Virus record (IMG/VR): IMGVR_UViG_2698536647_000003
Location: 1 to 8,752 of that record
Strand: one strand, 5' to 3'
Length of the DNA: 8,752 nucleotides
From: a virus
Lineage: Duplodnaviria; Heunggongvirae; Uroviricota; Caudoviricetes
Under the pieces are notes generated by a model. The model saw nothing but the letters and a program-made list of their open reading frames with translations. It was not told where the DNA came from and ran no database searches. Positions 1 to 8,752 of the stretch are shown in pieces (position 1 is the first letter of the stretch; each line of letters begins with the position of its first letter). The translations under genes were made by a program, and so were the position numbers.

Positions 1-804
1 CTGCGCCCACGGCACTGATGATTTTGGTGTTTGAGGGTCAGTGGTTGTTAGAAAACGGCTGAATACCGCATTACCGTAAGTAATCCACAGCTGCGCAATT
101 CGATGCCCGGTGTAGGAACTCTGAAACCCACAGCCATACGAAGGAGCCCACAGAGTATTGCCATCAGCATCACTGATGAAGGATGAACTGGCATCTGTGG
201 GCTTATTTTGGAGAACAGCACCAACCCCAAAAGCTCCCACCTGCATAACATTCCCTGCCGCAGTTCCGACATCCTTTGTCGCACTACTTCCTAAACCGAG
301 GTTTGTGCGAACGTCTGCTGCGTTCGTTGCCCCGGTCCCGCCCTGCGCAATAGAAAGCGCAGTAGTGAGTCCTTTCAGCTCCGTGATATCGCTGTTTGCC
401 CCCTTTCTGGCAAGTGCACCAATGCCCGGAATATTCACGGAAGCTCCGTTGATGGTAACGGTGATAGTTTGGTTTGCTGAGGTGGTGGCGAACGTCTCCC
501 ATGCGCCGATATTCTCGTCATACTCTTTGATGAGCTGAGACATGGCCTGCGCCAGGCCGTCGACTGAGATATTGTCTGACACAAGGATTCCATACTTCTG
601 GCCGCTCAGCGCCGGGGAAGCAACTGGCGTAACCGTCAAAGACGTGGCGCTGTTCACGGATGAAATCTGGAACAGCTGCACCGGGTTAGACATCACGATA
701 ATTGTCTGCCCAGCGCGAACCTGGCTGGCGGGAGCTGTCCAGTTTGTGCCGGAGCCGGTTGCGGTATTTCCGTTAATAGAGATAGTTCCTGTGCTATAAA
801 TCAT
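1..804 (-). CDS. Tail fibre protein, N-terminal 268 codons (partial; 3' end lies beyond the window start)
   Basis: Hand translation of the minus strand from ATG 804..802 is open for 268 codons to position 1 (MIYSTGTISINGNTATGSGTNW...), which explains why this frame is absent from the ATG-to-stop ORF track. TAGGAG sits 5 nt upstream of the ATG (811..816 on the minus strand). The translation contains LSIAQGGTGATNAADVRTNLGLG, a motif I recognise as recurrent in phage tail fibres. Position is immediately distal to J. Confidence 0.7.
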   Translation of the reverse strand, partial: MIYSTGTISINGNTATGSGTNWTAPASQVRAGQTIIVMSNPVQLFQISSVNSATSLTVTPVASPALSGQKYGILVSDNISVDGLAQAMSQLIKEYDENIGAWETFATTSANQTITVTINGASVNIPGIGALARKGANSDITELKGLTTALSIAQGGTGATNAADVRTNLGLGSSATKDVGTAAGNVMQVGAFGVGAVLQNKPTDASSSFISDADGNTLWAPSYGCGFQSSYTGHRIAQLWITYGNAVFSRFLTTTDPQTPKSSVPWAQ

Positions 805-881
805 AACAACTCCTAAATTTAGACAACATGAAGCCCGGAGAGGTATATAACCCTCACCAGAAATAATTTCTGAATTGGTTT

Positions 882-1228
882 TTAATACATGTTGGGCAAC
901 GCCAGTGTTGGCATAGCTATAGTTGTATCAAATGCCATTGACCACCCACCCAAATAATAATTGCCGACTACTTTATTCCTTTCTGCTCTGACATTCCCAC
1001 CTGTCATTACAATTCCTTTATACCTAATATTTCCGTAACCACCAACGTGTCGACAGTTAGCCCCGGTATAAACAATCTGGCAAAATTCATCACCAATATT
1101 CAGGTTCGCATTGGCGATATTTATTGTCCCATCAAAAATGAATGGCTTCGTGCAAGTAAGAAGACGTTTGCGTTGACGATTGGTTTATTCAATCCATCAA
1201 CCAAAATACCATGTAAACGAATTGCCAT
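882..1228 (-). pseudogene. Possible frameshifted remnant of a side-tail-fibre (Stf-like) N-terminus
   Basis: Minus-strand ATG at 1228 gives MAIRLHGILVDGLNKPIVNANVFLLARSHSFLMGQ then a stop at 1121..1123. Its first ~27 residues resemble the lambda Stf N-terminus as I recall it (MAVKISGVLKDGTGKPVQNCTIQLKARR). A second frame is open from 1130 to 882 (82 codons). AT-rich, no convincing intact gene. Confidence 0.25.
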
Positions 1229-1309
1229 AACATTTCCCACTTTATTTTACTTACTCAACACAACAAGTATATTAAAATTGAACCTTGTCAACAACACAAA
1301 GGAGTCCCA

Positions 1310-1543
1310 ATGAAACTCGCTCTAATTATGCTGCCATTATGTCTGTCCCTCACTGCATGTGGTAATGGTTTAAATACCGGTAAACCAAATTCCGGTGTCA
1401 TTCCAAAACCTTTGGATCGAGATGGTAACGGTTCTTTAATTTATGATACCGAAAACCTTCCAATGACGGGGCAGTGGTGTCACGAGATTGATCACGAATA
1501 CCGACGAATCGGTAGCCCTTCTAACTGTGTTATTGACTACTAA
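1310..1543 (+). CDS. Small predicted outer-membrane lipoprotein (77 aa), moron convergent with J
   Basis: ORF-track ORF with AAGGAG at 1299..1304, 5 nt before the ATG. N-terminus MKLALIMLPLCLSLTAC has a charged n-region, hydrophobic core and lipobox L-T-A-C (Gly at +2). AT-rich relative to flanking tail genes. A perfect hairpin terminator begins 2 nt after the stop. Confidence 0.6.
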   Translation: MKLALIMLPLCLSLTACGNGLNTGKPNSGVIPKPLDRDGNGSLIYDTENLPMTGQWCHEIDHEYRRIGSPSNCVIDY

Positions 1544-1544
1544 A

Positions 1545-1572
1545 TATTAACCCCTCAAAAGAGGGGTTAATA
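1545..1572. terminator. Bidirectional intrinsic terminator between the convergent lipoprotein gene and J
   Basis: Perfect 12-bp inverted repeat TATTAACCCCTC / GAGGGGTTAATA with a 4-nt AAAA loop. It is followed by TTTT (1573..1576) on the plus strand and flanked by A/T on the minus strand. It lies between the plus-strand stop (1541..1543) and the J stop (1575..1577). Confidence 0.65.
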
Positions 1573-1574
1573 TT

Positions 1575-4500
1575 TTAACCTGTGAATGAACCAGATCCGT
1601 GTGATACTATGACAGTAGGCGAATAAATGGACGCGCCCCTGTTATTTTGAGCGGACACTTTAATACGCACTGTTACGTTTGGACCTGTTACAACCGCAGA
1701 ATGCATGATAAGTCTCTCCATGTCTTGTACGGATGAACCACTCTCATTGCCGTTAATATTGATTAGTCCTGCACCATTACCTTTAACGTTTGCTATAACA
1801 CAGACGTGTCTTGCGTGCCCAGAACTGGATGAATCCGTATAAGTTATTACCTTTTCTAAAAGGCCGTCACTAGACCGACTAACGTCAGTTCCGGTGTGCA
1901 TATTTGCAATGTCCCCGATAAAACTTTGGGCTTCCACAGTCCCTTTGAATTTACCGCTTGTTGCTTGTATCTCACCAGTAAATCTACCGCCACTAGCATA
2001 TACTACACCTCTGACGGTCACATTGTTGAATTCAGCATCTCCAGCTTTATTCAACTTCCAACCAGCAGAACCAGCTGCATAGTTGTTGGACTGGATATAG
2101 TTACCGATTTTTGCGTTCTCAATGGTGCCGTCCTGGATGAAGCTGGCCCGGATGAATGTCTGTCCATTCTGGATCACAAACGGCAAAGCCACGCTATTTC
2201 CGGCTGCCGTGGTGACGGCGAAGCGATCAGCCAGGAAGATAACCTGCGACTGCATGCCGGATGGCGTATTCTCCACGCCGATACCCATCCCCGCGGCGTA
2301 ATACTGCCCGTTGCTGGAGACACCAACTTTGATGTTGTACATCGCGCTGAGGTCGCCGTTTACGTTCGCTATAGCCTGAGCGTTGGTTGTGATGGCTGAG
2401 GTATGCCCGTTCACCGTCGCCGTGATGCTGTTTACCTGCGTGGCCATAGCCTGCTGGTAATCGGAGAACGTCTGGTTCAGGCTGTTGATGGATGCCTTGT
2501 TGCCGTTAACGTCCGTCTGCAGGCTCAGCAGCGAGCGCGCCGTTGCCTCCCTGTCGTTGACAATCACCTCATCAATACGGTCCAGATTCGCGCTGTTGCC
2601 GGCGACCGATGCAGAAAGGGTTTTACGCGTGGCCACCTGAGCGAGGTTGGCCTGGATTATCGCAATTGCAGAGTTCTTCACCCCGCCCGTCATGCCGTCC
2701 ATAGAAACGCTGATGTTGTCGATTCGCTGGCCCAGGGCGGTATCAGCCGTCGCAACGGTCTGCTCAAGCTGACTGAGTGAAGACGAAACATTCCCGACCG
2801 TGCTGGAAAGCTCATTAACGCTGGTCTGAACCTTCCCTACGTCCTGGGCATTTTTGGCGATATCTTTCGCTTGCTGCTCCAGTTCGTCGTTAGCCTGTTT
2901 GATATCGTTAGCCATGCCAGCAATTTTTTCATTGCTGTCCACAGCGTTCTCGATCAGGTCTTTGAACGTATCGGAGCCTTTCATGTCCTCCAGGATCACA
3001 TCTGTGATGTCGGAAACATCGATGCTGGCCTGTCCTCGCACCCATTCTGTGTACCCTGATTCGTTGCCGCTGCGGTCCACCAGCTGAGCGCGGTACCAGA
3101 AAATCTGCCCAGCCTTGAGGCCCATCTGCTGATATTTGCGCTGCGGATAAGGCACATCGGCCAGCAGCATCGCATCGTCCTCGGTTCCGGTCAGGCTGTA
3201 CTGAATTTCCGTCTTCAGCGTGTCGTCGGTATTCGCCGGGAATCCCCAGTTCAGCTCGATGCCGAAAACCACATTTTCAGAAGCGATGAAGCCAACCGGC
3301 TTCGGTGGATTGCCCACTTTACCCGTCAGCGTTTTCTCTTCTGAATAGCCCCATCCGGATGAAATTTCAGCGGCGTTGATGGCACGCACGCGCACCAGGT
3401 ATCGTCCCGCATAAATGCCCGGAACATCGAACGATGTGGTGGAGCTGCGCGGCACGTTAACCCAGTTCCCGTCGTTGCGGCGCCATTGTGCTTCATAGGC
3501 GATAGCGTTCTGCGCCTGGTACCAGCTCACGCGCATTGTTTCGACGCTGATATTTTGCTGAACCACGGAAAACGAGCTGATCACGATATTCGCAGGCGGC
3601 GACTGGTTGCCCGGCGGGATCACGCTCACCGGCCGTTGGTCAATGATGGCTCCGGTATCGATACGGGCATATTTATCCGGGTCGTGCCATGCGCCGGTAA
3701 TCGAGAAAGTGCCATCATTGTTATCGGAAACGCTGACAACTCGATACTGCTGCGCGTAGAGCTCGTCAGATTCAACCACCCAAACAGCTTCGGCCTGTGG
3801 CGTCTCACTGTATGCCGTGGTGACTGTGACTGATTCCCCGTTCACGGCCTGAATGGTCCTGCTCTGCGACGCTCCGGAGGGAAGGTTGAGAATAAGGCGA
3901 TCACCTGGTGCTGCATCAGCTACGCGGTCAAGTTTGATAACGCGACCGTTAACGGCGCTGATGCGGCCGCCCATAACCTTTCCGGAAAGCAGCTCGTCTG
4001 CCACGGCGATGATGTAGCCAGGCTGCGGAATGTTTCCGTCCAGCCCGACATCAAACGAAACAACGCGATCCTTGTTGTTGGTGAGAATGCCCCAGCGCCC
4101 CTTTCGGTTCGCTTCTGACTGCCTGGTGCAGCCGATGGCTGTCATTTCCAGCTGATTGAAGCCGTATCGCGCTACCAGCGCCTGCTCAAATACCGGCTCC
4201 ATCGCGTCGGCATAAGCGTTACCCGGGTCTGACCATGAAACCAGCGCTGTGGTGTAGCGGGTTTTCGTGGTGCTGCTTGAATAGGTGAAGCGACCGCCAA
4301 CAACGTTGGCGCGCGTGTAGCTGTAATCAACATCTCGGGGCATATCGGCCAGAGCAACGATCTGATCGCCTCCCCAGTACGTCATGCCACGGAATATGGC
4401 CGCAAAATCACGCAGGACTGTATAAGCGTCGTTTCGGTCCTGGATGTACACGTTGCAGGTATAACGCGGTTCGGTACCGTTGCCCCCTTTGCCGTCTGGT

Positions 4501-5465
4501 ACCATCTGATCACAATACTGGGCAACCTGATAAAGCGTCCATTTATCAATATTCGCAGCGGTCAAACGGTGCCCGAGGCCGAACCGGTCAGAAACAACCA
4601 GATCGTAAAAAATCCACGCAGGGTTATCCGTCCATGCCCACTTAAACGCACCGGTCCATGTACCGCTATAAGTGCGGGTTTCAGGGTCGTAGGTATCTGG
4701 AACGCGGATAACACGGCCGCGGGGCTCGCAGGAGATCTGCGGGATAGAGCCGTTAAACTGACTTGAATCGAATTCGATGTAGAGTAGCGCTGTGTTTGGA
4801 TATCGTAACTTGGCGTCAATCACCTCGGTGAAGCTCTGCAGCGTCATCGTGTCGCCGATCTTCGCGCTGTTGGCATCAGAGGTAATCTTACGCAGACGTA
4901 TTGTCCAGGTGCTGCCAGCTTGCGGTAAATCGATACGGTGGCTGCGCTCATAACCAGACGTCGTTTTGCCGGTCACGCTGGTATTGAGTACCGTCTGCCA
5001 TGTGCCGCCGTCCGTCTGCAGGTCAATCGCATAATTGACCGAGTAACCCACCAGATCTCCGTCGTCTTCCTGTTTGAAAAGCGAGGGCCATTTCAGACGC
5101 AGACGAACTGCTGAAAGCTGCGTATTGGTAAACGTGCGCGTCCAGGCTGTAGCGCTTGATACCTCAGTTCCCACGCTGATTTCGTTTTCGGTACCGGGAA
5201 TACCCTGAATATATTTTTGAGCCTGCGTCCCCGCGCGAAACTCCCACGTCACGCCGCTGAAGTTTTGGGAACCGTCGGCATTCTCCAGCGCCGTTCCGTC
5301 CAGGTAGATATCTTTGCCGGTTAGCTGCCCTGCGAACTCCCCTTCGCCAAGCGCAACGAGGATTTTTGCCTTCGCTACAGATTGCAGATCATCAGGCTGT
5401 TCGGTAGGAGTTCGTGAACTGGATTTGCCGCCTTTGCGCCCCTTTAATACTTTCTCTGTAGCCAT
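1575..5465 (-). CDS. J: Host specificity protein J (central tail fibre / tail tip), 1296 aa
   Basis: Single 3891-nt ORF. The N-terminal region (KGGKSSSRTPTEQPDDLQS...) and the segment YYAAGMGIGVENTPSGMQSQVIFLADRFAV... resemble lambda gpJ as I recall it. It sits after M-L-K-I in lambda order. Start ATG 5465 has only a weak GGA-type Shine-Dalgarno. Confidence 0.93.
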   Translation of the reverse strand: MATEKVLKGRKGGKSSSRTPTEQPDDLQSVAKAKILVALGEGEFAGQLTGKDIYLDGTALENADGSQNFSGVTWEFRAGTQAQKYIQGIPGTENEISVGTEVSSATAWTRTFTNTQLSAVRLRLKWPSLFKQEDDGDLVGYSVNYAIDLQTDGGTWQTVLNTSVTGKTTSGYERSHRIDLPQAGSTWTIRLRKITSDANSAKIGDTMTLQSFTEVIDAKLRYPNTALLYIEFDSSQFNGSIPQISCEPRGRVIRVPDTYDPETRTYSGTWTGAFKWAWTDNPAWIFYDLVVSDRFGLGHRLTAANIDKWTLYQVAQYCDQMVPDGKGGNGTEPRYTCNVYIQDRNDAYTVLRDFAAIFRGMTYWGGDQIVALADMPRDVDYSYTRANVVGGRFTYSSSTTKTRYTTALVSWSDPGNAYADAMEPVFEQALVARYGFNQLEMTAIGCTRQSEANRKGRWGILTNNKDRVVSFDVGLDGNIPQPGYIIAVADELLSGKVMGGRISAVNGRVIKLDRVADAAPGDRLILNLPSGASQSRTIQAVNGESVTVTTAYSETPQAEAVWVVESDELYAQQYRVVSVSDNNDGTFSITGAWHDPDKYARIDTGAIIDQRPVSVIPPGNQSPPANIVISSFSVVQQNISVETMRVSWYQAQNAIAYEAQWRRNDGNWVNVPRSSTTSFDVPGIYAGRYLVRVRAINAAEISSGWGYSEEKTLTGKVGNPPKPVGFIASENVVFGIELNWGFPANTDDTLKTEIQYSLTGTEDDAMLLADVPYPQRKYQQMGLKAGQIFWYRAQLVDRSGNESGYTEWVRGQASIDVSDITDVILEDMKGSDTFKDLIENAVDSNEKIAGMANDIKQANDELEQQAKDIAKNAQDVGKVQTSVNELSSTVGNVSSSLSQLEQTVATADTALGQRIDNISVSMDGMTGGVKNSAIAIIQANLAQVATRKTLSASVAGNSANLDRIDEVIVNDREATARSLLSLQTDVNGNKASINSLNQTFSDYQQAMATQVNSITATVNGHTSAITTNAQAIANVNGDLSAMYNIKVGVSSNGQYYAAGMGIGVENTPSGMQSQVIFLADRFAVTTAAGNSVALPFVIQNGQTFIRASFIQDGTIENAKIGNYIQSNNYAAGSAGWKLNKAGDAEFNNVTVRGVVYASGGRFTGEIQATSGKFKGTVEAQSFIGDIANMHTGTDVSRSSDGLLEKVITYTDSSSSGHARHVCVIANVKGNGAGLININGNESGSSVQDMERLIMHSAVVTGPNVTVRIKVSAQNNRGASIYSPTVIVSHGSGSFTG

Positions 5466-5476
5466 ATCGCGTCCAT

Positions 5477-5499
5477 AAAAAAAGCCACCCGAAGGCGGC
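5477..5499 (-). terminator. Intrinsic terminator on the minus strand, ending 11 nt upstream of the J start codon
   Basis: Minus-strand RNA reads GCCGCC-UUCG-GGUGGC (6-bp stem with one G.U, UUCG tetraloop) followed by seven U (plus 5477..5483 is A7). Confidence 0.6.
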
Positions 5500-5631
5500 T
5501 ACTGTTTAAATATCAGGCTGTTGGTAACAGGAATCCCTGGTTAATGTGTAAGCTCAGCCCGCCAGTGGTAGGCCTCTGGCGTTAACTGACCGAGGGATGG
5601 CTGAAGTACCCGGTTAAAATGGAGTAATAAG

Positions 5632-5847
5632 ATGATCGAAGAAAAGTTCGTGGATTTTAGATTTACTCTTGACGAAAATATTCCTAGAGAAATCGCTTTA
5701 GAAATTGTGGCTCTAAGACAAGTTACAATGGTATTAACAGCAGCATTGCCAGTAGATACAAGGCAACAAGTTATTGAAATCCTATCAAAGACAAACTCAC
5801 CACAAATTCAAGACATCGTCAAAAATATGAAGCTTATTGACGCCTAA
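5632..5847 (+). CDS. Hypothetical 71-aa protein in the I-J insertion (plus strand)
   Basis: ORF-track ORF with GGAG at 5621..5624, 7 nt before the ATG. AT-rich. Its 3' end overlaps the 3' end of the minus-strand 49-aa ORF by about 50 nt, so at most one of the two may be real. No recognisable motif. Confidence 0.35.
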   Translation: MIEEKFVDFRFTLDENIPREIALEIVALRQVTMVLTAALPVDTRQQVIEILSKTNSPQIQDIVKNMKLIDA

Positions 5848-5946
5848 TGTCATTGAAGCATCGTACTCTACGGTCTCATGCGGGACCGTTTCATTAACTT
5901 CAGATGTTTCATTTTCAGTTTTTTCTACTCGTGACTCAAAAGACAT
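5797..5946 (-). CDS. Hypothetical small acidic protein (49 aa) immediately downstream of I
   Basis: Hand translation: MSFESRVEKTENETSEVNETVPHETVEYDASMTLGVNKLHIFDDVLNLW (11 Asp/Glu against 3 Arg/Lys). AAGGAG at 5958..5953 sits 6 nt before ATG 5946 and 8 nt after the I stop. Below the ORF track's apparent length cut-off. Confidence 0.35.
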   Translation of the reverse strand: MSFESRVEKTENETSEVNETVPHETVEYDASMTLGVNKLHIFDDVLNLW

Positions 5947-5966
5947 ACACATCTCCTTAACTTAGC

Positions 5967-6554
5967 TTACTGCTGATCTTCGACATATATCCCGGCAGAA
6001 ATAATCGCTCCGCCGATTCGACGCTTACCATAAAGCAGAGGCACTGGGTAGCCTTGCGCTGCAGTGTTGGTTACCCCGCCAAACGCATACGATGCACGGT
6101 TATCTGCGCTTTGTTTGCTGGCCAGCCCTGTAGCCTGAGGGGATAACATCTGAACTACCCCCCCCAGCGTTATGGACGCACCAGCAGCAAACATCATATT
6201 GCTGGCAGCTATACTCAGACCTGGCATCCAGATCGATGCAATCACTAATACTGCGCCCAGGATAGTTTGAATCAAACCGGCTTTTTTACTCCCGATGATT
6301 ACCGGAACAATGCGAATAACCTCGCCGGTAATCGGGAAGCCAAGGTCATCCACACCGATGTTTTTTTTACCCTTAAACACGGAGTATGTGAGCCCACGGC
6401 GTTGGCTGGAAATCATAAACTGCTCAAATCCAGGAATGGTTTTTGCGAGTGCAACGCCTGCTTCGCTTACGCGGGATATCAGACGGTAGTGAACTTTGCC
6501 AAACGTTTTTCCAAGAACACTGCCTAATTCAATTCGACTCATGACCTCTTGCAT
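5967..6554 (-). CDS. I: Tail assembly protein I (ubiquitin-like N-terminal domain, hydrophobic C-terminal region)
   Basis: Resembles lambda gpI as I recall it (e.g. ...GYPVPLLYG... near the C-terminus, Gly/Ala-rich hydrophobic stretch). I trimmed the ORF-track start (6641) to ATG 6554, which follows a GGGGGGA run by 4 nt and lies downstream of the 6570..6591 terminator. An in-frame ATG at 6542 is an alternative. Confidence 0.85.
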   Translation of the reverse strand: MQEVMSRIELGSVLGKTFGKVHYRLISRVSEAGVALAKTIPGFEQFMISSQRRGLTYSVFKGKKNIGVDDLGFPITGEVIRIVPVIIGSKKAGLIQTILGAVLVIASIWMPGLSIAASNMMFAAGASITLGGVVQMLSPQATGLASKQSADNRASYAFGGVTNTAAQGYPVPLLYGKRRIGGAIISAGIYVEDQQ

Positions 6555-6569
6555 ATAATCCCCCCACGT

Positions 6570-6591
6570 AAAAAAACCGCCGAAGCGGTTT
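6570..6591 (-). terminator. Intrinsic terminator on the minus strand after the K-I lipoprotein gene
   Basis: Minus-strand RNA reads AAACCGC-UUCG-GCGGUUU followed by a U-run (plus 6570..6576 is A7). Lies between the lipoprotein stop (6616) and the I start (6554). Confidence 0.65.
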
Positions 6592-6615
6592 AATTTGGTT
6601 GATTTATTTAGGTGT

Positions 6616-7011
6616 TTATTTATTAAAATGTTTCTTTTCAATGCTCATTGCTTGATTAAAGAAATTTGTAGCATTAATTACCGCCCTTTCACAATCCTTC
6701 TGCCCATAATGTCGATGGCATTGGAATTCAGCATTTATTGCCGTATCGCCGGACTGTTTAACCTTAGATGCCCGTCCTGCAAGTTGCCTTGTATCAATAG
6801 GTGGGAATGTTGTTATAAATGTATCGTTAGCTGATTCTACTCTCATTTTTGTTGCAAACTCCAAATGCTGAGGAACCTTCGACCAAAGATAACTACATTC
6901 AGCCTCTGATGAACATGTGACAGGCTTAGTATCTAATACCGGCATTGGCCTATTATCAGCACATCCAGCGGTGGCAAGTACCACAAGACCAGAGAACAAT
7001 ATTTTTTTCAC
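6616..7011 (-). CDS. Cys-rich predicted outer-membrane lipoprotein (131 aa), moron between K and I
   Basis: ORF-track ORF starting at GTG 7011..7009 (no in-frame ATG nearby), with GGGAAG 7 nt upstream. N-terminus MKKILFSGLVVLATAGC fits a lipoprotein signal with Cys+1 and Ala at +2. The mature part has 4 further Cys. AT-rich; own terminator downstream. No homolog recognised. Confidence 0.6.
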   Translation of the reverse strand: MKKILFSGLVVLATAGCADNRPMPVLDTKPVTCSSEAECSYLWSKVPQHLEFATKMRVESANDTFITTFPPIDTRQLAGRASKVKQSGDTAINAEFQCHRHYGQKDCERAVINATNFFNQAMSIEKKHFNK

Positions 7012-7098
7012 AATTAAGCTTCCCTTTCATTGAAAATATCAGAGGAATACTAACATGAAGTTATGGAGTGAGTAATTAACAACTTAACCACTATAGAA

Positions 7099-7809
7099 TT
7101 AACAAAATACTTTGTACCGAAGTACTTTCATTGTTCTTTCCTGCCAGTAGCCACCATATGGCACGCGCTGGCTAAGATGACCGTACAAATGATGCAGTAG
7201 CATATTGCCCTCAAGCAGGATCCCCGCGTGATTCCACTTATCGGCCTGGACCTGCATGATGATGAGGTCCCCTTCCTGAGGCGGGCCATCAAACTCCCTG
7301 AATCCGCACTCGTACCAGCACTCCTGATAGAAATTGTCCGGGTAGTCGTTTTCCCACCAGGGATAATCCACCCGGTAATCGTGGAGCTCGATACCGTGGG
7401 TCTGCCGGAAATAGCTCATTACCAGACCCCAGCAATCGAAGTGGCCAAGCACGAACGGACGCTCCAGCAATGGCAGCTCCCCGCGTGGCTGAATGGTACG
7501 TAAATCCCCCTCTGGCCAGCTCACAATATGCCAGGGCAGCAGCGTTGCATCACACTGTGCCTTATCCAGCTCGCTGGCCTGCGTCGTCGCATCAGGATGG
7601 CTGTGAACAATGGCCACCACCGTCCCCCAGTCTTCTGCCGCTGCGTAATCTTCGGGGGACAGGTGAAAATGTTCAGTCGGCTCTGCTGCGAGATTACGAC
7701 AGGGAAAATAGCGCTCAACCCGGCTTTTCTGTGCCACCACGCCGCAGCACTCGCGCGGATATTCCGCTGCAGCGTGTGCCATGATGGCATCAATGGTTTT
7801 CTGGCGCAT
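7099..7809 (-). CDS. K: Tail assembly / tail tip protein K (JAMM/MPN metalloprotease-like N-domain plus NlpC/P60-like C-domain)
   Basis: JAMM motif visible: E in PRECCGVV, then HSHPDATTQASELD, which fits H-x-H-x7-S-x2-D. NlpC/P60-like Cys in GHFDCWGLV and His in WNHAGILL. Start set at ATG 7809 (protein MRQKTIDAIM...) with AGGAG 5 nt upstream; the L stop TGA (7813..7811) is 1 nt before it. The ORF-track start at 7845 is probably an upstream non-ATG artefact. Confidence 0.9.
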   Translation of the reverse strand: MRQKTIDAIMAHAAAEYPRECCGVVAQKSRVERYFPCRNLAAEPTEHFHLSPEDYAAAEDWGTVVAIVHSHPDATTQASELDKAQCDATLLPWHIVSWPEGDLRTIQPRGELPLLERPFVLGHFDCWGLVMSYFRQTHGIELHDYRVDYPWWENDYPDNFYQECWYECGFREFDGPPQEGDLIIMQVQADKWNHAGILLEGNMLLHHLYGHLSQRVPYGGYWQERTMKVLRYKVFC

Positions 7810-7810
7810 A

Positions 7811-8566
7811 TCAACTCCTGATAAGAGATGTACCGGGGAAACCACCGAACGGCAGCTCGTTGCTGTATCCGTGCCGGAGCTTGCAGGCCGTCAGCGTGCC
7901 GTTGCATACATCCAGCGAGGGATCGTCAACCGGATTATTGTTTTTGTCGAAATAGCGCGTTCCGGCATAGTCGCAGCCGTCGCCGGTACGATATTTATTC
8001 CGGATGCACCAGGTACACAGGGAATGAAGCTGTCGCGTCGGGATCATTTGCCCCTGCAGGTCCATCGGGCTGGATAGTGTGAACTCAACAACTTCATTGG
8101 TTTCACTGCTCTTTGCATCGATGTAGAAAACCTTCAGCTTCTCCTGGGTCGGATCGGCTGTCGGATTGCCTCCGGTGAAGTTTCTCGCATCAAGATACTT
8201 ACCAAGGGTGTCATGTATCGTCACCTTCGCCTGCAGCATATCGTCGTAAGCCAGGCAAAGCGCGGTGATCGAACTGTCGAGGTTAGCAACCGAAAGTTTT
8301 GGCTGGGCACTACTTCCCGAGGTTGAAGCTTCGATCCCATCAATCTGGCATGGCCACGCTTTATACTCCTCACCCTGCCACCAGATAGATTTTGCTGGCA
8401 GTTTATTTTCATCACCGCCAGCAGCCTCAATCTCTTCCGGGGTATGCGCGATGTTATGTGCGTGGAAGCGGAGTACATCTGACATACCGAACGCTGTGCC
8501 ATCGACAGAAAAAAGCCGGACTTCATTGCCCGGCTCGAGTTTTTGATAATCAGCATTAAGACTCAT
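7811..8566 (-). CDS. L: Tail tip protein L (251 aa)
   Basis: Position between M and K. C-terminal Cys cluster (LCTWCIRNKYRTGDGCDYAG ... CNGTLTACKLRHG) resembles the conserved Cys pattern of lambda gpL as I recall it. The ATG at 8566..8564 overlaps the M stop in an ATGA arrangement. Confidence 0.9.
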   Translation of the reverse strand: MSLNADYQKLEPGNEVRLFSVDGTAFGMSDVLRFHAHNIAHTPEEIEAAGGDENKLPAKSIWWQGEEYKAWPCQIDGIEASTSGSSAQPKLSVANLDSSITALCLAYDDMLQAKVTIHDTLGKYLDARNFTGGNPTADPTQEKLKVFYIDAKSSETNEVVEFTLSSPMDLQGQMIPTRQLHSLCTWCIRNKYRTGDGCDYAGTRYFDKNNNPVDDPSLDVCNGTLTACKLRHGYSNELPFGGFPGTSLIRS

Positions 8567-8752
8567 GGTGCAAATGCCTGTTCAAACGTTGCGGTTACGG
8601 TTATCACTTTTACGTTTTTAACCACCTTTTTGAGCGTGTCAGCCTCGACACGCCACAGCGCGGTATCGCCGAAAGGCGGTGTGAAAATAAACGACTTCAC
8701 TTTATGCCGCCGAAGGAAAGCGTGAATTTCATTCGCTGTAGTCGGATCCCCT
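8563..8752 (-). CDS. M: Tail tip protein M, C-terminal 62 codons (partial; 5' end lies beyond the window end)
   Basis: Hand translation of the minus strand from 8751 gives ...GDPTTANEIHAFLRRHKVKSFIFTPPFGDTALWRVEADTLKKVVKNVKVITVTATFEQAFAP then a stop at 8565..8563. This resembles the C-terminal half of lambda gpM as I recall it (...WKSFLWTPPYEW...). The stop overlaps the L start. Confidence 0.8.
   Translation of the reverse strand, partial: GDPTTANEIHAFLRRHKVKSFIFTPPFGDTALWRVEADTLKKVVKNVKVITVTATFEQAFAP

Follow-up and report, generated by a model that had tools for sequence, protein, structure and literature searches.

Which DNA fills the AT-rich gaps in a conserved phage tail-tip module, and what may its genes do? 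We analysed a stretch of viral DNA of 8,752 nucleotides (the window), in which three such gaps separate tail genes. The window probably represents a tail-tip module from a lambdoid E. coli prophage akin to HK97/HK022 (Hendrixvirinae-type), with the three AT-rich gaps as the standard moron slots of this module family.

Tail-tip backbone and three low-GC gaps

The backbone DNA was 85-92% identical to that of HK97, HK022, mEp235, HK75, mEp506 and other phages, and individual backbone genes showed 72-94% DNA identity to their HK97 and HK022 counterparts. The original prediction, made from the window sequence, had proposed the lambda gene order M-L-K-I-J-fibre with tight coupling of M/L and L/K. 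Both proposals were borne out: the genes ran M-L-K-I-J-stf on the minus strand, and coupling is tight because M and L overlap by 4 bases (ATGA) and L and K are spaced by 1 base. The backbone genes, the gaps and their hairpins were located as follows.

>8563, minus strand: M, backbone gene cut by the window edge
7811..8566, minus strand: L, minor tail protein (Pfam Phage_tail_L, E 5e-87); start overlaps the M stop codon
7099..7809, minus strand: K, tail tip protein with JAB and NlpC/P60 domains (Pfam Prok-JAB and NLPC_P60)
6555..7098, minus strand: slot 1 (K-I), low-GC island, GC 0.379
6567..6591, minus strand: terminator hairpin upstream of I (AAACCGC-TTCG-GCGGTTT + T7), stem-loop 6591..6574, -12.3 kcal/mol
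5967..6554, minus strand: I, tail assembly protein, 195 aa (phrog_32, E 6.5e-72)
5466..5966, minus strand: slot 2 (I-J), low-GC island, GC 0.407; cargo-specific portion 5582..5966
5476..5500, minus strand: terminator hairpin upstream of J (AGCCGCC-TTCG-GGTGGCT + T7), stem-loop 5500..5483, -12.3 kcal/mol
1575..5465, minus strand: J, tip attachment/host specificity protein of HK97 type, 1296 aa (Pfam FNIII-A_GpJ, Phage-tail_3, Phage_Tail_Tip)
805..1574, no strand assigned: slot 3 (J-fibre), low-GC island, GC 0.391; portion missing from HK97, 886..1573
1546..1570, both strands: bidirectional terminator hairpin common to J and the lipoprotein gene of slot 3, 15-bp arms, -22.0 kcal/mol on the minus strand and -20.9 kcal/mol on the plus strand
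1..804, minus strand: side tail fibre of stf type, of which the window includes just the N-terminal part; 82-88% identity with the N-termini of stf in HK97, HK022 and relatives

The gap boundaries proved to be exactly those predicted. The K start at 7809 agreed with the 711-bp K of HK97 and of the relative L003. I had the length of the annotated I of L003 and was just 72% identical to HK97 I; the whole of J was 92.4% identical to HK97 J in nucleotide sequence. The fibre part had no match in Pfam.

The AT-richness claimed for the gaps was confirmed by their GC content of 0.38-0.41, as compared with 0.50-0.55 for the backbone (L-K, 0.537; I, 0.497; J, 0.539), and by a GC3 of 0.29-0.37 in the cargo versus 0.48-0.65 in the backbone. 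Values were also low in the final 177 codons of J (GC 0.44, GC3 0.36), so the slot-3 GC trough extends to about position 2100.

Each gap had also been predicted to carry small ORFs with Shine-Dalgarno sequences and a terminator hairpin. Intact ORFs and a hairpin were found in each, and the slot-1 and slot-3 genes were each followed by a hairpin with a T-run, but the slot-2 hairpin belonged to the backbone. It falls within 5466..5581, a part common to HK97, where a terminator is annotated, and it was kept in 39 of the 41 relatives with an empty I-J gap; as judged by this conservation, the slot-2 terminator is a backbone feature and not cargo. Homologous hairpins carry terminator annotation in HK97, HK75 and mEp235. 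Since terminator-like sites showed no excess across the window (10, against 8.6 in shuffles), it is the position and strength of the three hairpins that count. Promoter-like sites in the whole window numbered 5, below shuffles (10.7), and among the cargo genes only the slot-3 lipoprotein gene had a sigma-70-like promoter upstream, with consensus and relaxed scans finding none for the other three (131, 71 and 51 aa).

Moron slots and the exchange of their cargo

Three cargo slots in one tail-tip module had been considered unusual. This view did not hold, because the HK97 and HK022 records tag the K-I, I-J and post-J genes as 'moron' or 'reverse moron', and both phages are arranged likewise. HK97 and HK022 are the phages for which the term moron was coined and defined (Juhala et al. 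2000; PMC3594210). Their morons (gp20 at K-I; gp22/gp23 and Srb at I-J; Cor after J) have low GC and occupy the same three junctions, with a forward plus 'reverse moron' geometry at I-J and terminator hairpins upstream of I and J, as in the window. The gene content differed. The K-I gene of HK97 and HK022 encodes a 74-aa YebO-like membrane protein, and HK022 carries p24, p25 and cor after J whereas HK97 carries nothing; the window's cargo at these two junctions was not homologous to any of these. In addition, cor lies on the strand of J, whereas the lipoprotein gene of the window lies on the opposite strand.

We surveyed occupancy in about 70 relatives, each from a different species. The K-I junction was filled in 49 of 70 and empty in 20; the I-J junction was filled in 22 of 73 and empty in 51. 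The gaps of these relatives had a GC content of 0.33-0.48. A conserved backbone with variable or empty gaps is the outcome that had been predicted for relatives, and the prophage of E. coli Nissle 1917 and HK97 illustrate it: in Nissle 1917, K and I overlap, the I-J gap is 42 bp and slot 3 holds the same cassette as the window, while in HK97 slot 3 is empty and the J-stf gap measures 208 bp versus 770 bp in the window. The gaps are thus extra DNA between genes that are adjacent in related phages, with a base composition (GC and GC3) unlike that of the neighbouring genes. By these features, the slots and their cargo are further examples of the known HK97/HK022-type morons. The predicted moron pattern stood in so far as horizontally exchanged accessory DNA of this kind was found at all three gaps; about half of slot 3 (1240..882), however, was debris.

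The three cargos differed in distribution. Slot-1, slot-2 and slot-3 cargo occurred in 2, 4 and 42 of 5426 complete E. coli genomes, respectively, and the backbone in 88. Nissle 1917 had slot 3 filled with slots 1 and 2 empty; a second prophage of MSB1_9D combined the same slot-1 gene with other slot-2 cargo, a J of HK022 type and cor; and mEp506 shared slot 2 with the window but carried gp20 and cor in slots 1 and 3, respectively. As judged by these combinations, the three cargos assort independently. The cargo was 99.6-100% identical even though the backbones carrying it were just 85-92% identical. In mismatch maps against L003, zero-mismatch blocks (4700-5999 and 6100-7300) covered cargo together with neighbouring backbone, and breakpoints were located within I, K and J. 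Cargo would thus be swapped between prophages via homologous recombination in the flanking conserved tail genes, and each slot would therefore assort on its own. Near slot 3, the only strongly diverged block against L003 (1300-2000) comprised the lipoprotein gene and about the last 140 codons of J, so these two were exchanged as one unit.

Cargo of the K-I and I-J slots

The following genes were identified in slots 1 and 2.

6616..7011, minus strand (the tail-gene strand): slot-1 lipoprotein, 131 aa, GTG start with a Shine-Dalgarno sequence; lipobox LATAG/C, Ala at +2, four further conserved Cys
5797..5952, minus strand: slot-2 forward small ORF, acidic, 51 aa (49 aa if the second ATG, at 5946, is the start), AAGGAG Shine-Dalgarno sequence
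5632..5847, plus strand: slot-2 reverse gene, 71-aa helical protein placed in the Srb (HK022 gp23) family by hhalign, GGAG Shine-Dalgarno sequence

In slot 1, the segment 6582..7126 was unique relative to HK97 and HK022, and two E. coli prophages carried the slot at 99.6% identity, although their K or L matched that of the window at just 85-90%. The 131-aa family comprised 67 clusters at 50% identity, in which the lipobox Cys, C33, C39, C98, C107 and T68 were invariant and G16, W43 and F118 nearly so. The protein matched phrog_16082 (unknown function; E 8e-9), and searches of Pfam, NCBIfam, PADLOC and PDB gave no match. Its AlphaFold model (pLDDT 67.5) had structural matches limited to generic alpha/beta folds. 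The slot-1 product would be a periplasm-facing lipoprotein with two predicted disulfides, encoded in sense orientation. Our best guess is that it has another cell-envelope or exclusion role, possibly with expression as part of the late operon.

A heuristic screen of relatives found a forward-strand lipoprotein gene in 32 of the 47 occupied K-I slots of 300-2500 bp. These lipoproteins belonged to several families without mutual BLAST similarity. The K-I junction may, as a tentative suggestion, be a dedicated lipoprotein slot instead of a random cargo site. If so, the K-I lipoproteins could be unrecognised, fast-evolving envelope modifiers, late- or prophage-expressed and fitted to the tail tip, one conceivable action being to block a secondary or periplasmic/inner-membrane entry factor; the four-cysteine 131-aa family, with its 67 clusters lacking annotation, would be one member of such a class. 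Across Enterobacterales, sense-strand lipoproteins made up two thirds of the occupied K-I slots in this heuristic screen.

The unique 385 bp of slot 2 were 99.7-100% identical in four E. coli genomes and phage mEp506. The 3' end of the reverse gene overlaps the forward ORF by 51 bp, and this forward/reverse geometry recurs in HK022, mEp506 and L091. The two genes would form a convergent overlapping pair placed between the I stop codon and the conserved pre-J terminator. The 71-aa protein aligned with the HK022 Srb family over 52 columns (hhalign probability 95.3%, E 2.3e-8) and matched phrog_6806 (E 1.6e-6); by this alignment it is a remote homologue of HK022 Srb, whose position and strand it also shares. 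It was 100% identical in mEp506 and L003 and was not homologous to HK97 gp23. HMMER searches of Pfam (E up to 10) did not recover the 'DUF2594' label of the mEp506 record. The forward ORF, annotated in mEp506 as a 49-aa CDS, had no family match in Pfam, PHROG and other family searches. Its N-terminal motif M-S/T-F/L-E-S/Q-R-V/I-E was also present in the forward ORFs of L091, L012, L034 and L029, whose slot-2 cargo otherwise differs.

The slot-3 lipoprotein and LamB

Slot 3 contained a gene cassette and the remains of older genes.

1170..1577, plus strand: mobile cassette of promoter, lipoprotein gene and bidirectional terminator, 88.5% nucleotide identity to CAjan
1246..1273, plus strand: sigma-70-like promoter, TTTACT-16-TATATT, ahead of the lipoprotein gene and conserved in CAjan (TTGACT-16-TATATT)
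1310..1543, plus strand: lipoprotein, 77 aa, AAGGAG Shine-Dalgarno sequence; lipobox LTA/C, Gly at +2, conserved C57 and C73
882..1240, minus strand: gene debris by three-frame translation, with an Stf-like N-terminus (about 30 codons) followed in a different frame by the end of a DUF6453 gene (final ~90 codons)

The debris matched positions 222-289 of 291 of Pfam DUF6453 (E 1.4e-21) and positions 241-332 of 332 of phrog_1265, and its residues 1-31 matched tail-fibre N-termini. Nissle 1917 and EC23HZZ201 have the identical frameshifted remnant; in L011, the DUF6453 gene at the J-fibre junction is intact (311 aa). By these matches, about half of slot 3 is debris of two older genes and not cargo. 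An 88-aa ORF (1047..1313) runs antisense to the debris, and one annotation fuses it to the lipoprotein ORF.

The 77-aa lipoprotein is the most informative of the cargos. Its signal peptide and lipobox read MKLALIMLPLCLSLTA/C, with the Cys invariant in 22 aligned homologues; it matched phrog_12984 'lipoprotein' (E 1e-56), and tblastn found it in 44 phage records. Its AlphaFold model was poor (pLDDT 58). Slot 3 was present at a minimum of 99.6% identity in 25 of the 42 E. coli carrier genomes, Nissle 1917 among them.

Two groups of phages carry related genes at the same place. In the mEpimmI phages mEp010, mEp044 and mEp554, the type-C Lpp lies directly downstream of J, convergent with it and with a terminator common to both, as in the window, and the mEp044 equivalent of the 1546..1570 hairpin is annotated as terminator T17. 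The 77-aa protein and type-C Lpp have in common the blocks PNSGVIP, DTE.LP.TGQWCHE and RRIGSPSNCV and both cysteines, and differ in the N-terminal third of the mature protein. Identity to mEp044_110, assigned to type-C Lpp by its residues at positions 2, 11, 38 and 40, was 51% overall and 71% (37/52) in the C-terminal 52 residues (BLASTP E 3e-30). These carriers are a non-lambdoid temperate group using LamB, whereas the window is lambdoid. The second group comprises Seuratvirus, Nonagvirus and Dhillonvirus (CAjan gp19, Seurat, 9g, Bas21-24, EP23), whose gpJ-locus lipoproteins were 72-96% identical to the 77-aa protein, reaching 90-96% in the LamB-dependent Seuratvirus/Nonagvirus phages. The CAjan match spans exactly 1170..1577. 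In CAjan, too, this segment is flanked by J and the fibre gene and converges on J, in an arrangement (J minus, lipoprotein plus, fibre minus) identical to that of the window. Unlike the window prophage, the Seuratvirus-type carriers are virulent; the C-terminus of their J is only ~33% identical to that of the window, and the gene is annotated there as 'lipoprotein' or 'hypothetical'.

As judged by sequence similarity, the 77-aa protein is homologous to Lpp type C, a lipoprotein that excludes LamB phages. When expressed from a plasmid, Lpp010 excluded mEp010, mEp044, mEp554 and lambda, all LamB-dependent; it did not exclude mEp013, likewise a LamB phage, and its specificity can therefore be narrow (PMC11893012). 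No lambdoid-phage lipoprotein had been reported to exclude lambda (PMC11893012). HK97 adsorbs to LamB (PMC6832061), and Bas21-24, all four BASEL carriers of the lipoprotein gene, use LamB (PMC8594841, S5 Table); cognate exclusion genes lie downstream of gpJ (PMC8594841). The J of the window prophage, being of HK97 type, would be expected to use LamB as well. Lpp010 is only 51% identical overall to the 77-aa protein, and it may act by blocking either the receptor or injection (PMC11893012).

From these similarities, we infer that the 77-aa lipoprotein acts in exclusion, with LamB as target, and would be expressed in the lysogen. Slot 3 would then be a self-contained reverse-strand cassette of sigma-70-like promoter, outer-membrane lipoprotein gene and a terminator common to J. 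Its product would block or mask LamB or otherwise halt infection there, and a lysogen or infected cell would shut out superinfecting LamB-dependent phages. The same logic applies to Cor and FhuA downstream of the FhuA-type J in HK022. Cor and Llp are receptor-blocking exclusion lipoproteins acting on FhuA. Cor (HK022, phi80, N15, T1) and Llp (T5) are, as in the window, small outer-membrane lipoproteins encoded directly downstream of the tail-tip or receptor-binding gene; Cor likewise has 77 aa, and the target expected is the receptor of the phage's own tip in both cases, FhuA for Cor/Llp and LamB for the window lipoprotein. Membership of the Cor family was rejected, with BLASTP similarity confined to the signal peptide and no tblastn match for Cor in the window.

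Other accounts of the cargo were weighed against this exclusion role. We consider it improbable that the slots are anti-phage defence hotspots with intracellular systems (abortive infection, toxin-antitoxin), in which the slot-2 pair would be toxin and antitoxin or regulators. PADLOC matched none of the four ORFs (E up to 0.1), a search for a toxin-like domain found none, and two of the three main cargo proteins carry lipoprotein signal peptides. Slot 2 of relatives does sometimes hold larger cytoplasmic-looking genes (a 210-aa reverse gene in MSB1_9D; 180-320-aa genes in L025, L056, L067 and L069), and the convergent overlap (51 bp in the window, 18 bp in L091, 81 bp in HK022 by annotated coordinates) would permit antisense control. 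It is less probable still, and in our judgement very unlikely, that the gaps are mostly non-functional, with decaying remnants and spacer from past recombination and small ORFs that are chance frames in AT-rich DNA. The frameshifted Stf-like/DUF6453 debris and its antisense 88-aa ORF fit that description, as does the forward ORF of slot 2, with no family match and no counterpart of at least 45 aa in L048. Yet the 77-, 131- and 71-aa families have diverged members that retain reading frame, lipobox and cysteines, the cargo is nearly identical across diverged backbones, and Lpp010, a homologue of the 77-aa protein, has a phenotype shown by experiment.

A main role in the lytic cycle is possible, though we lean against it. 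The cargo would then be made during infection, its sense-strand genes from the late tail operon, and would spare progeny virions from receptors in lysed-cell debris and prevent secondary infection, like T5 Llp. Consistent with this, the homologues of the 77-aa lipoprotein that are 90-96% identical occur in strictly virulent Seuratvirus/Nonagvirus phages, so the gene is not dedicated to lysogenic conversion; the 131-aa lipoprotein gene and the 51-aa ORF lie on the tail-gene strand without a detected promoter-like site, and the K-I lipoproteins of relatives are as a rule forward-oriented. However, two genes, the Srb-like one and that of slot 3, run antisense to the late operon, and the latter is preceded by a conserved promoter of its own, an arrangement expected for expression while the late genes are silent. 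The exclusion of phages by Lpp010 expressed alone is compatible with either reading. Lytic-cycle and prophage expression are themselves compatible with each other.

Against LamB exclusion by the slot-3 lipoprotein counts its loose coupling to J: HK97 has the same J type but no such lipoprotein, and in CAjan the lipoprotein accompanies a J whose C-terminus is just 33% identical. The lipoprotein of Nissle 1917, identical to that of the window, could be the prophage factor behind the complete lambda resistance of this strain.

Backbone of the tail-tip module and its three gaps

The long genes of the window are all encoded by the minus strand, and their order is that of lambda, in agreement with the original prediction.

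Backbone genes
M, (−): cut by the window end, first of the long genes in lambda order
8566..7811, (−): L
7809..7099, (−): K
6554..5967, (−): I
5465..1575, (−): J
804..1, (−): stf-like side fibre, N-terminal part

M and L overlap by 4 bases and L and K are spaced by 1 base, matching the tight coupling claimed for these pairs. The predicted coordinates of the three gaps, 6555..7098 between K and I (slot 1), 5466..5966 between I and J (slot 2) and 805..1574 between J and the fibre gene (slot 3), were exact. The gaps are also AT-rich, as predicted: their GC contents are 0.379, 0.407 and 0.391, respectively, versus 0.50–0.55 in the backbone, and GC3 is 0.29–0.37 in the cargo (the small accessory genes in the gaps) versus 0.48–0.65 in the backbone. 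A strong hairpin with a T-run was found in each gap (−12.3, −12.3 and about −22 kcal/mol for slots 1, 2 and 3). The predicted hairpin per gap was present in all three, but the slot-2 hairpin belongs to the backbone. Searching the whole window against Rfam (E up to 1) gave no RNA-family match. Beside the cargo ORFs described below, the remaining short ORFs of the gaps were not accepted as genes: they run antisense to gene debris or to real genes and have only near-identical DNA as homologues.

The window DNA is 85–92% identical to HK97, HK022, mEp235, HK75, mEp506 and related coliphages, as well as to prophages of 88 of 5426 complete E. coli genomes. Homology breaks off at the gaps, with HK97-matching blocks at 289..885, 1574..5581, 5967..6581 and 7127..8580. 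Morons, accessory genes inserted between genes that are adjacent in related phages, were first described in HK97 and HK022 (PMC3594210). The records of these two phages give moron products at all three junctions: gp20 (K-I), gp22 and gp23/Srb (I-J) and Cor (after J). gp23/Srb, on the strand opposite to the tail genes, is labelled a 'reverse moron', and the HK97 record annotates terminators ahead of I and of J. Thus, the three slots are archetypal, not odd. The moron reading of the original prediction was broadly right; its view that three cargo slots in one module are unusual was not. The architecture is textbook, already known, and changes no picture, whereas the cargo genes are new, although the kinds to which they belong are already known. 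Tail-moron expression data were not found in the HK022 lysogen paper (PMC6814406). The gp20 of HK022, mEp235, HK75 and mEp506, a 74-aa membrane protein, matches Pfam YebO (PF13974, E 1.8e-12). The 321-bp K-I gap of HK97 is without a gene in the RefSeq table, yet its length and GC are the same as those of the HK022 gap.

Occupancy of the K-I and I-J gaps

We surveyed 80 loci, each from a different species, that encode a relative of protein I, and determined the positions of K, I and J in them. Of 70 loci, 49 had a K-I gap of more than 300 bp and 20 had one of less than 100 bp; for the I-J gap, the corresponding numbers were 22 and 51 of 73. Filled gaps had a GC content of 0.33–0.48. As the original prediction anticipated, the backbone was retained in these relatives, and the two gaps were filled in some loci and near-empty in others.

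A heuristic screen found a sense-strand lipoprotein gene in 32 of the 47 filled K-I gaps of 300–2500 bp, i.e. two thirds (examples among loci L004–L083 are L012, L057, L033, L009 and L058). These lipoproteins fall into several families that are mutually unrelated by BLAST, most of them without a Pfam family; one is YecR-like and one has a PDZ domain. In the version carried by L009, L010 and L037, a domain resembling the 131-aa protein of the window is joined to a C-terminal PDZ domain. The slot-1 gene of the window is of the same kind.

Slot-1 feature
7011..6616: 131-aa lipoprotein gene, lipobox with Ala at +2

According to the lipoprotein +2 rule, Ala at +2 predicts outer-membrane sorting, and the 131-aa protein is predicted to be sorted there. 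Four further Cys residues are invariant across its family (67 clusters at 50% identity). Searches of Pfam, NCBIfam, PADLOC and PDB gave no match for the protein, and fold comparison likewise yielded nothing informative. Because no promoter-like site was found upstream, even in a relaxed scan, the gene may be transcribed from the late operon.

A convergent pair of small ORFs, the forward one of ~50 aa and the reverse one of ~70 aa, is often found in filled I-J gaps, and the window has such a pair.

Slot-2 features
5632..5847: 71-aa reverse gene, identical in mEp506 and in E. coli EC23HZZ201
5946..5914, (−): first ~11 residues of the forward ORF
5476..5500: hairpin ahead of J

The forward ORF is acidic, 49–51 aa long and preceded by a strong ribosome-binding site; at its 3′ end, 51 bp are shared with the reverse gene. 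We suggest that this convergent overlap would permit mutually exclusive expression in the lysogenic versus the lytic state. A relaxed scan found no convincing promoter upstream of the slot-2 ORFs. The 71-aa protein is remotely homologous to HK022 Srb (hhalign probability 95.3%, E 2e-8), for which a literature search found no function; relatives 63–65% identical occur in Kosakonia and metagenomes. Homology to HK97 gp23 and to the other ~70-aa reverse slot-2 ORFs of the relatives was tested and not supported, and HMMER did not reproduce the label 'DUF2594' that the mEp506 record gives to the identical gene. Neither the 71-aa nor the 51-aa protein had a match in Pfam, NCBIfam, PADLOC or a PDB sequence search. 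The opening of the forward ORF recurs in four relatives (L091, L012, L034 and L029) despite differing cargo, with the common form M-T/S-L/F-E-Q/S-R-V/I-E-x-L/T-E; it may be a conserved small protein or a recombination joint beside the I stop codon.

Among 41 loci with an empty I-J gap (35–70 bp), 39 had a gap made up of the same GC-rich hairpin, GGCCACC-UUCG-GGUGGCC-U7, directly ahead of J, indicating that the slot-2 'terminator' is a part of the backbone. The slot-2 cargo lies between the I stop codon and this hairpin. The hairpin is a predicted intrinsic terminator, conserved in the tail operon with or without cargo; it could insulate J in the lysogen or set J dosage. Treating the K-I gap as a lipoprotein slot and the hairpin ahead of J as a backbone feature refines the annotation of such islands.

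A putative exclusion lipoprotein between J and the fibre gene

Slot-3 features
1310..1543, (+): 77-aa lipoprotein gene, AAGGAG ribosome-binding site
1246..1273: promoter-like site of this gene, TTTACT-16-TATATT
Within slot 3: hairpin with 15-bp arms, common to the end of J and the lipoprotein gene
1240..882: gene debris

The 77-aa protein matches phrog_12984 'lipoprotein' (E 1e-56), and an alignment of 22 homologues indicated that its lipobox Cys is invariant and two further Cys residues nearly so. By tblastn, it was found in 44 phage records. Homologues 90–96% identical are present in virulent Seuratvirus and Nonagvirus phages (CAjan, Seurat, 9g and Bas21–24 of the BASEL collection); identity is ~72% in the Dhillonvirus phages EP23 and HH3, and 51% in the mEpimmI phage mEp044. 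Cor homology of the 77-aa or the 131-aa lipoprotein was ruled out by BLASTP and tblastn comparison.

In CAjan, as in the window, J and the fibre gene flank the lipoprotein gene, which is convergent with J. DNA homology spans exactly window 1170..1577, containing the promoter, the gene and the terminator, and CAjan keeps the promoter as TTGACT-16-TATATT. For each of the four BASEL carriers, the terminal receptor given is LamB (S5 Table of PMC8594841), and small siphoviruses place cognate exclusion genes downstream of gpJ (PMC8594841). The mEp044 lipoprotein, mEp044_110, is likewise convergent to J with a terminator in common, and it agrees with the type-C Lpp exclusion lipoproteins at all four positions described in PMC11893012. 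Plasmid-expressed mEp010 Lpp gave exclusion of four LamB-dependent phages (mEp010, mEp044, mEp554 and lambda) and none of mEp013; according to the same study, no such exclusion lipoprotein was known from lambdoid phages (PMC11893012). Of the last 52 residues, 37 are shared with type-C Lpp in the window protein and 44 in the EC23HZZ201 allele. The J of the window is of HK97 type over its full length (92% DNA identity), and HK97 adsorbs to LamB (PMC6832061).

Homology to a tested Lpp, position and LamB association together point to the 77-aa protein being a LamB-cognate exclusion lipoprotein, with the activity of this allele predicted from them. The gene is a lambdoid-prophage member of a lipoprotein family whose exclusion of LamB phages, including lambda, was shown only in a non-lambdoid phage group, and one cargo gene now has a specific, cheaply testable putative function. 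The cassette travels between virulent and temperate siphophages, a mobility useful for predicting receptor use and cross-resistance in phage therapy or engineered phages.

The debris beside the cassette consists of ~30 codons resembling Stf-type fibre N-termini, followed in another frame by the 3′-terminal ~90 codons of a DUF6453 gene (Pfam DUF6453 positions 222–289 of 291, E 1.4e-21; phrog_1265 positions 241–332 of 332). In a Yokenella locus, the DUF6453 gene between J and the fibre gene is intact and encodes 311 aa; E. coli Nissle 1917 and EC23HZZ201 have the same frameshifted remnant. The 88-aa ORF at 1047..1313 (+) was rejected as a gene, being antisense to the debris with homologues that are near-identical DNA only. 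In EC23HZZ201 (L003 2259..2756, (+), WP_244574249.1), RefSeq merges the antisense-to-debris ORF and the lipoprotein ORF into one 'hypothetical protein' of 165 aa; most likely, the real gene there encodes the 77-aa lipoprotein and begins at the internal signal peptide. In a Citrobacter braakii locus (L026, ~10470..10626), J is truncated to 2067 bp and its end is a C-terminal fragment of DUF6453, apparently a further recombination scar like that in slot 3.

Exchange of the cargo and the Nissle 1917 prophage

The slot-1, slot-2 and slot-3 sequences were found in 2, 4 and 42 complete E. coli genomes, respectively, and EC23HZZ201 was the only one with all three. All copies of slots 1 and 2 were at least 99% identical, as were 25 of the 42 slot-3 copies, the others being 80–99% identical; the backbone around the cargo copies was 84–92% identical. 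A second prophage of MSB1_9D shares the slot-1 gene of the window; its slot 2 holds another reverse gene, of 210 aa, and its J is of HK022 type with p24, p25 and cor downstream. Phage mEp506 has slot 2 as in the window, with gp20 as its slot-1 and cor as its slot-3 cargo. Mismatch maps against EC23HZZ201 showed zero-mismatch blocks (4700–5999 and 6100–7300) that cover cargo and adjoining backbone, with breakpoints within J, I and K, indicating that cargo is exchanged by homologous recombination in the flanking genes. Sharp patches of 20–36% divergence interrupt otherwise identical stretches at 6000..6100 and 7300..8000 (versus EC23HZZ201) and at 8000..8400 (versus L085); lying in I, K and L, they represent fine-scale mosaicism inside single tail genes, besides that at gene borders.

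The last 177 codons of J (1575..2105, (−)) are cargo-like in composition, with a GC of 0.44 and a GC3 of 0.36 versus 0.55 and 0.65 in the rest of J. Compared with EC23HZZ201, the J end is ~70% identical and the J middle 88–93%; the end behaves as a separately exchanged receptor-binding cassette. The sole strongly diverged block around slot 3 in this comparison, 1300–2000, contains the lipoprotein gene and the ~140 last J codons, indicating that both were replaced as one unit. In this relative, the cassette was thus swapped together with the receptor-binding end of J.

The slot-3 cassette is also present in Nissle 1917 and its derivatives, at 99.6% DNA identity and with an identical lipoprotein (NZ_CP022686.1 429845..430532, window 886..1573). 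It sits in a lambdoid-type prophage in which slots 1 and 2 are empty, with K and I overlapping and an I-J gap of 42 bp. The prophage repressor accounts for only ~200-fold of the lambda resistance of Nissle, and a contribution of other prophage genes was raised as a question (PMC5987069). The lipoprotein is a candidate link to this partly explained resistance of a probiotic strain, and we consider it the most useful lead.
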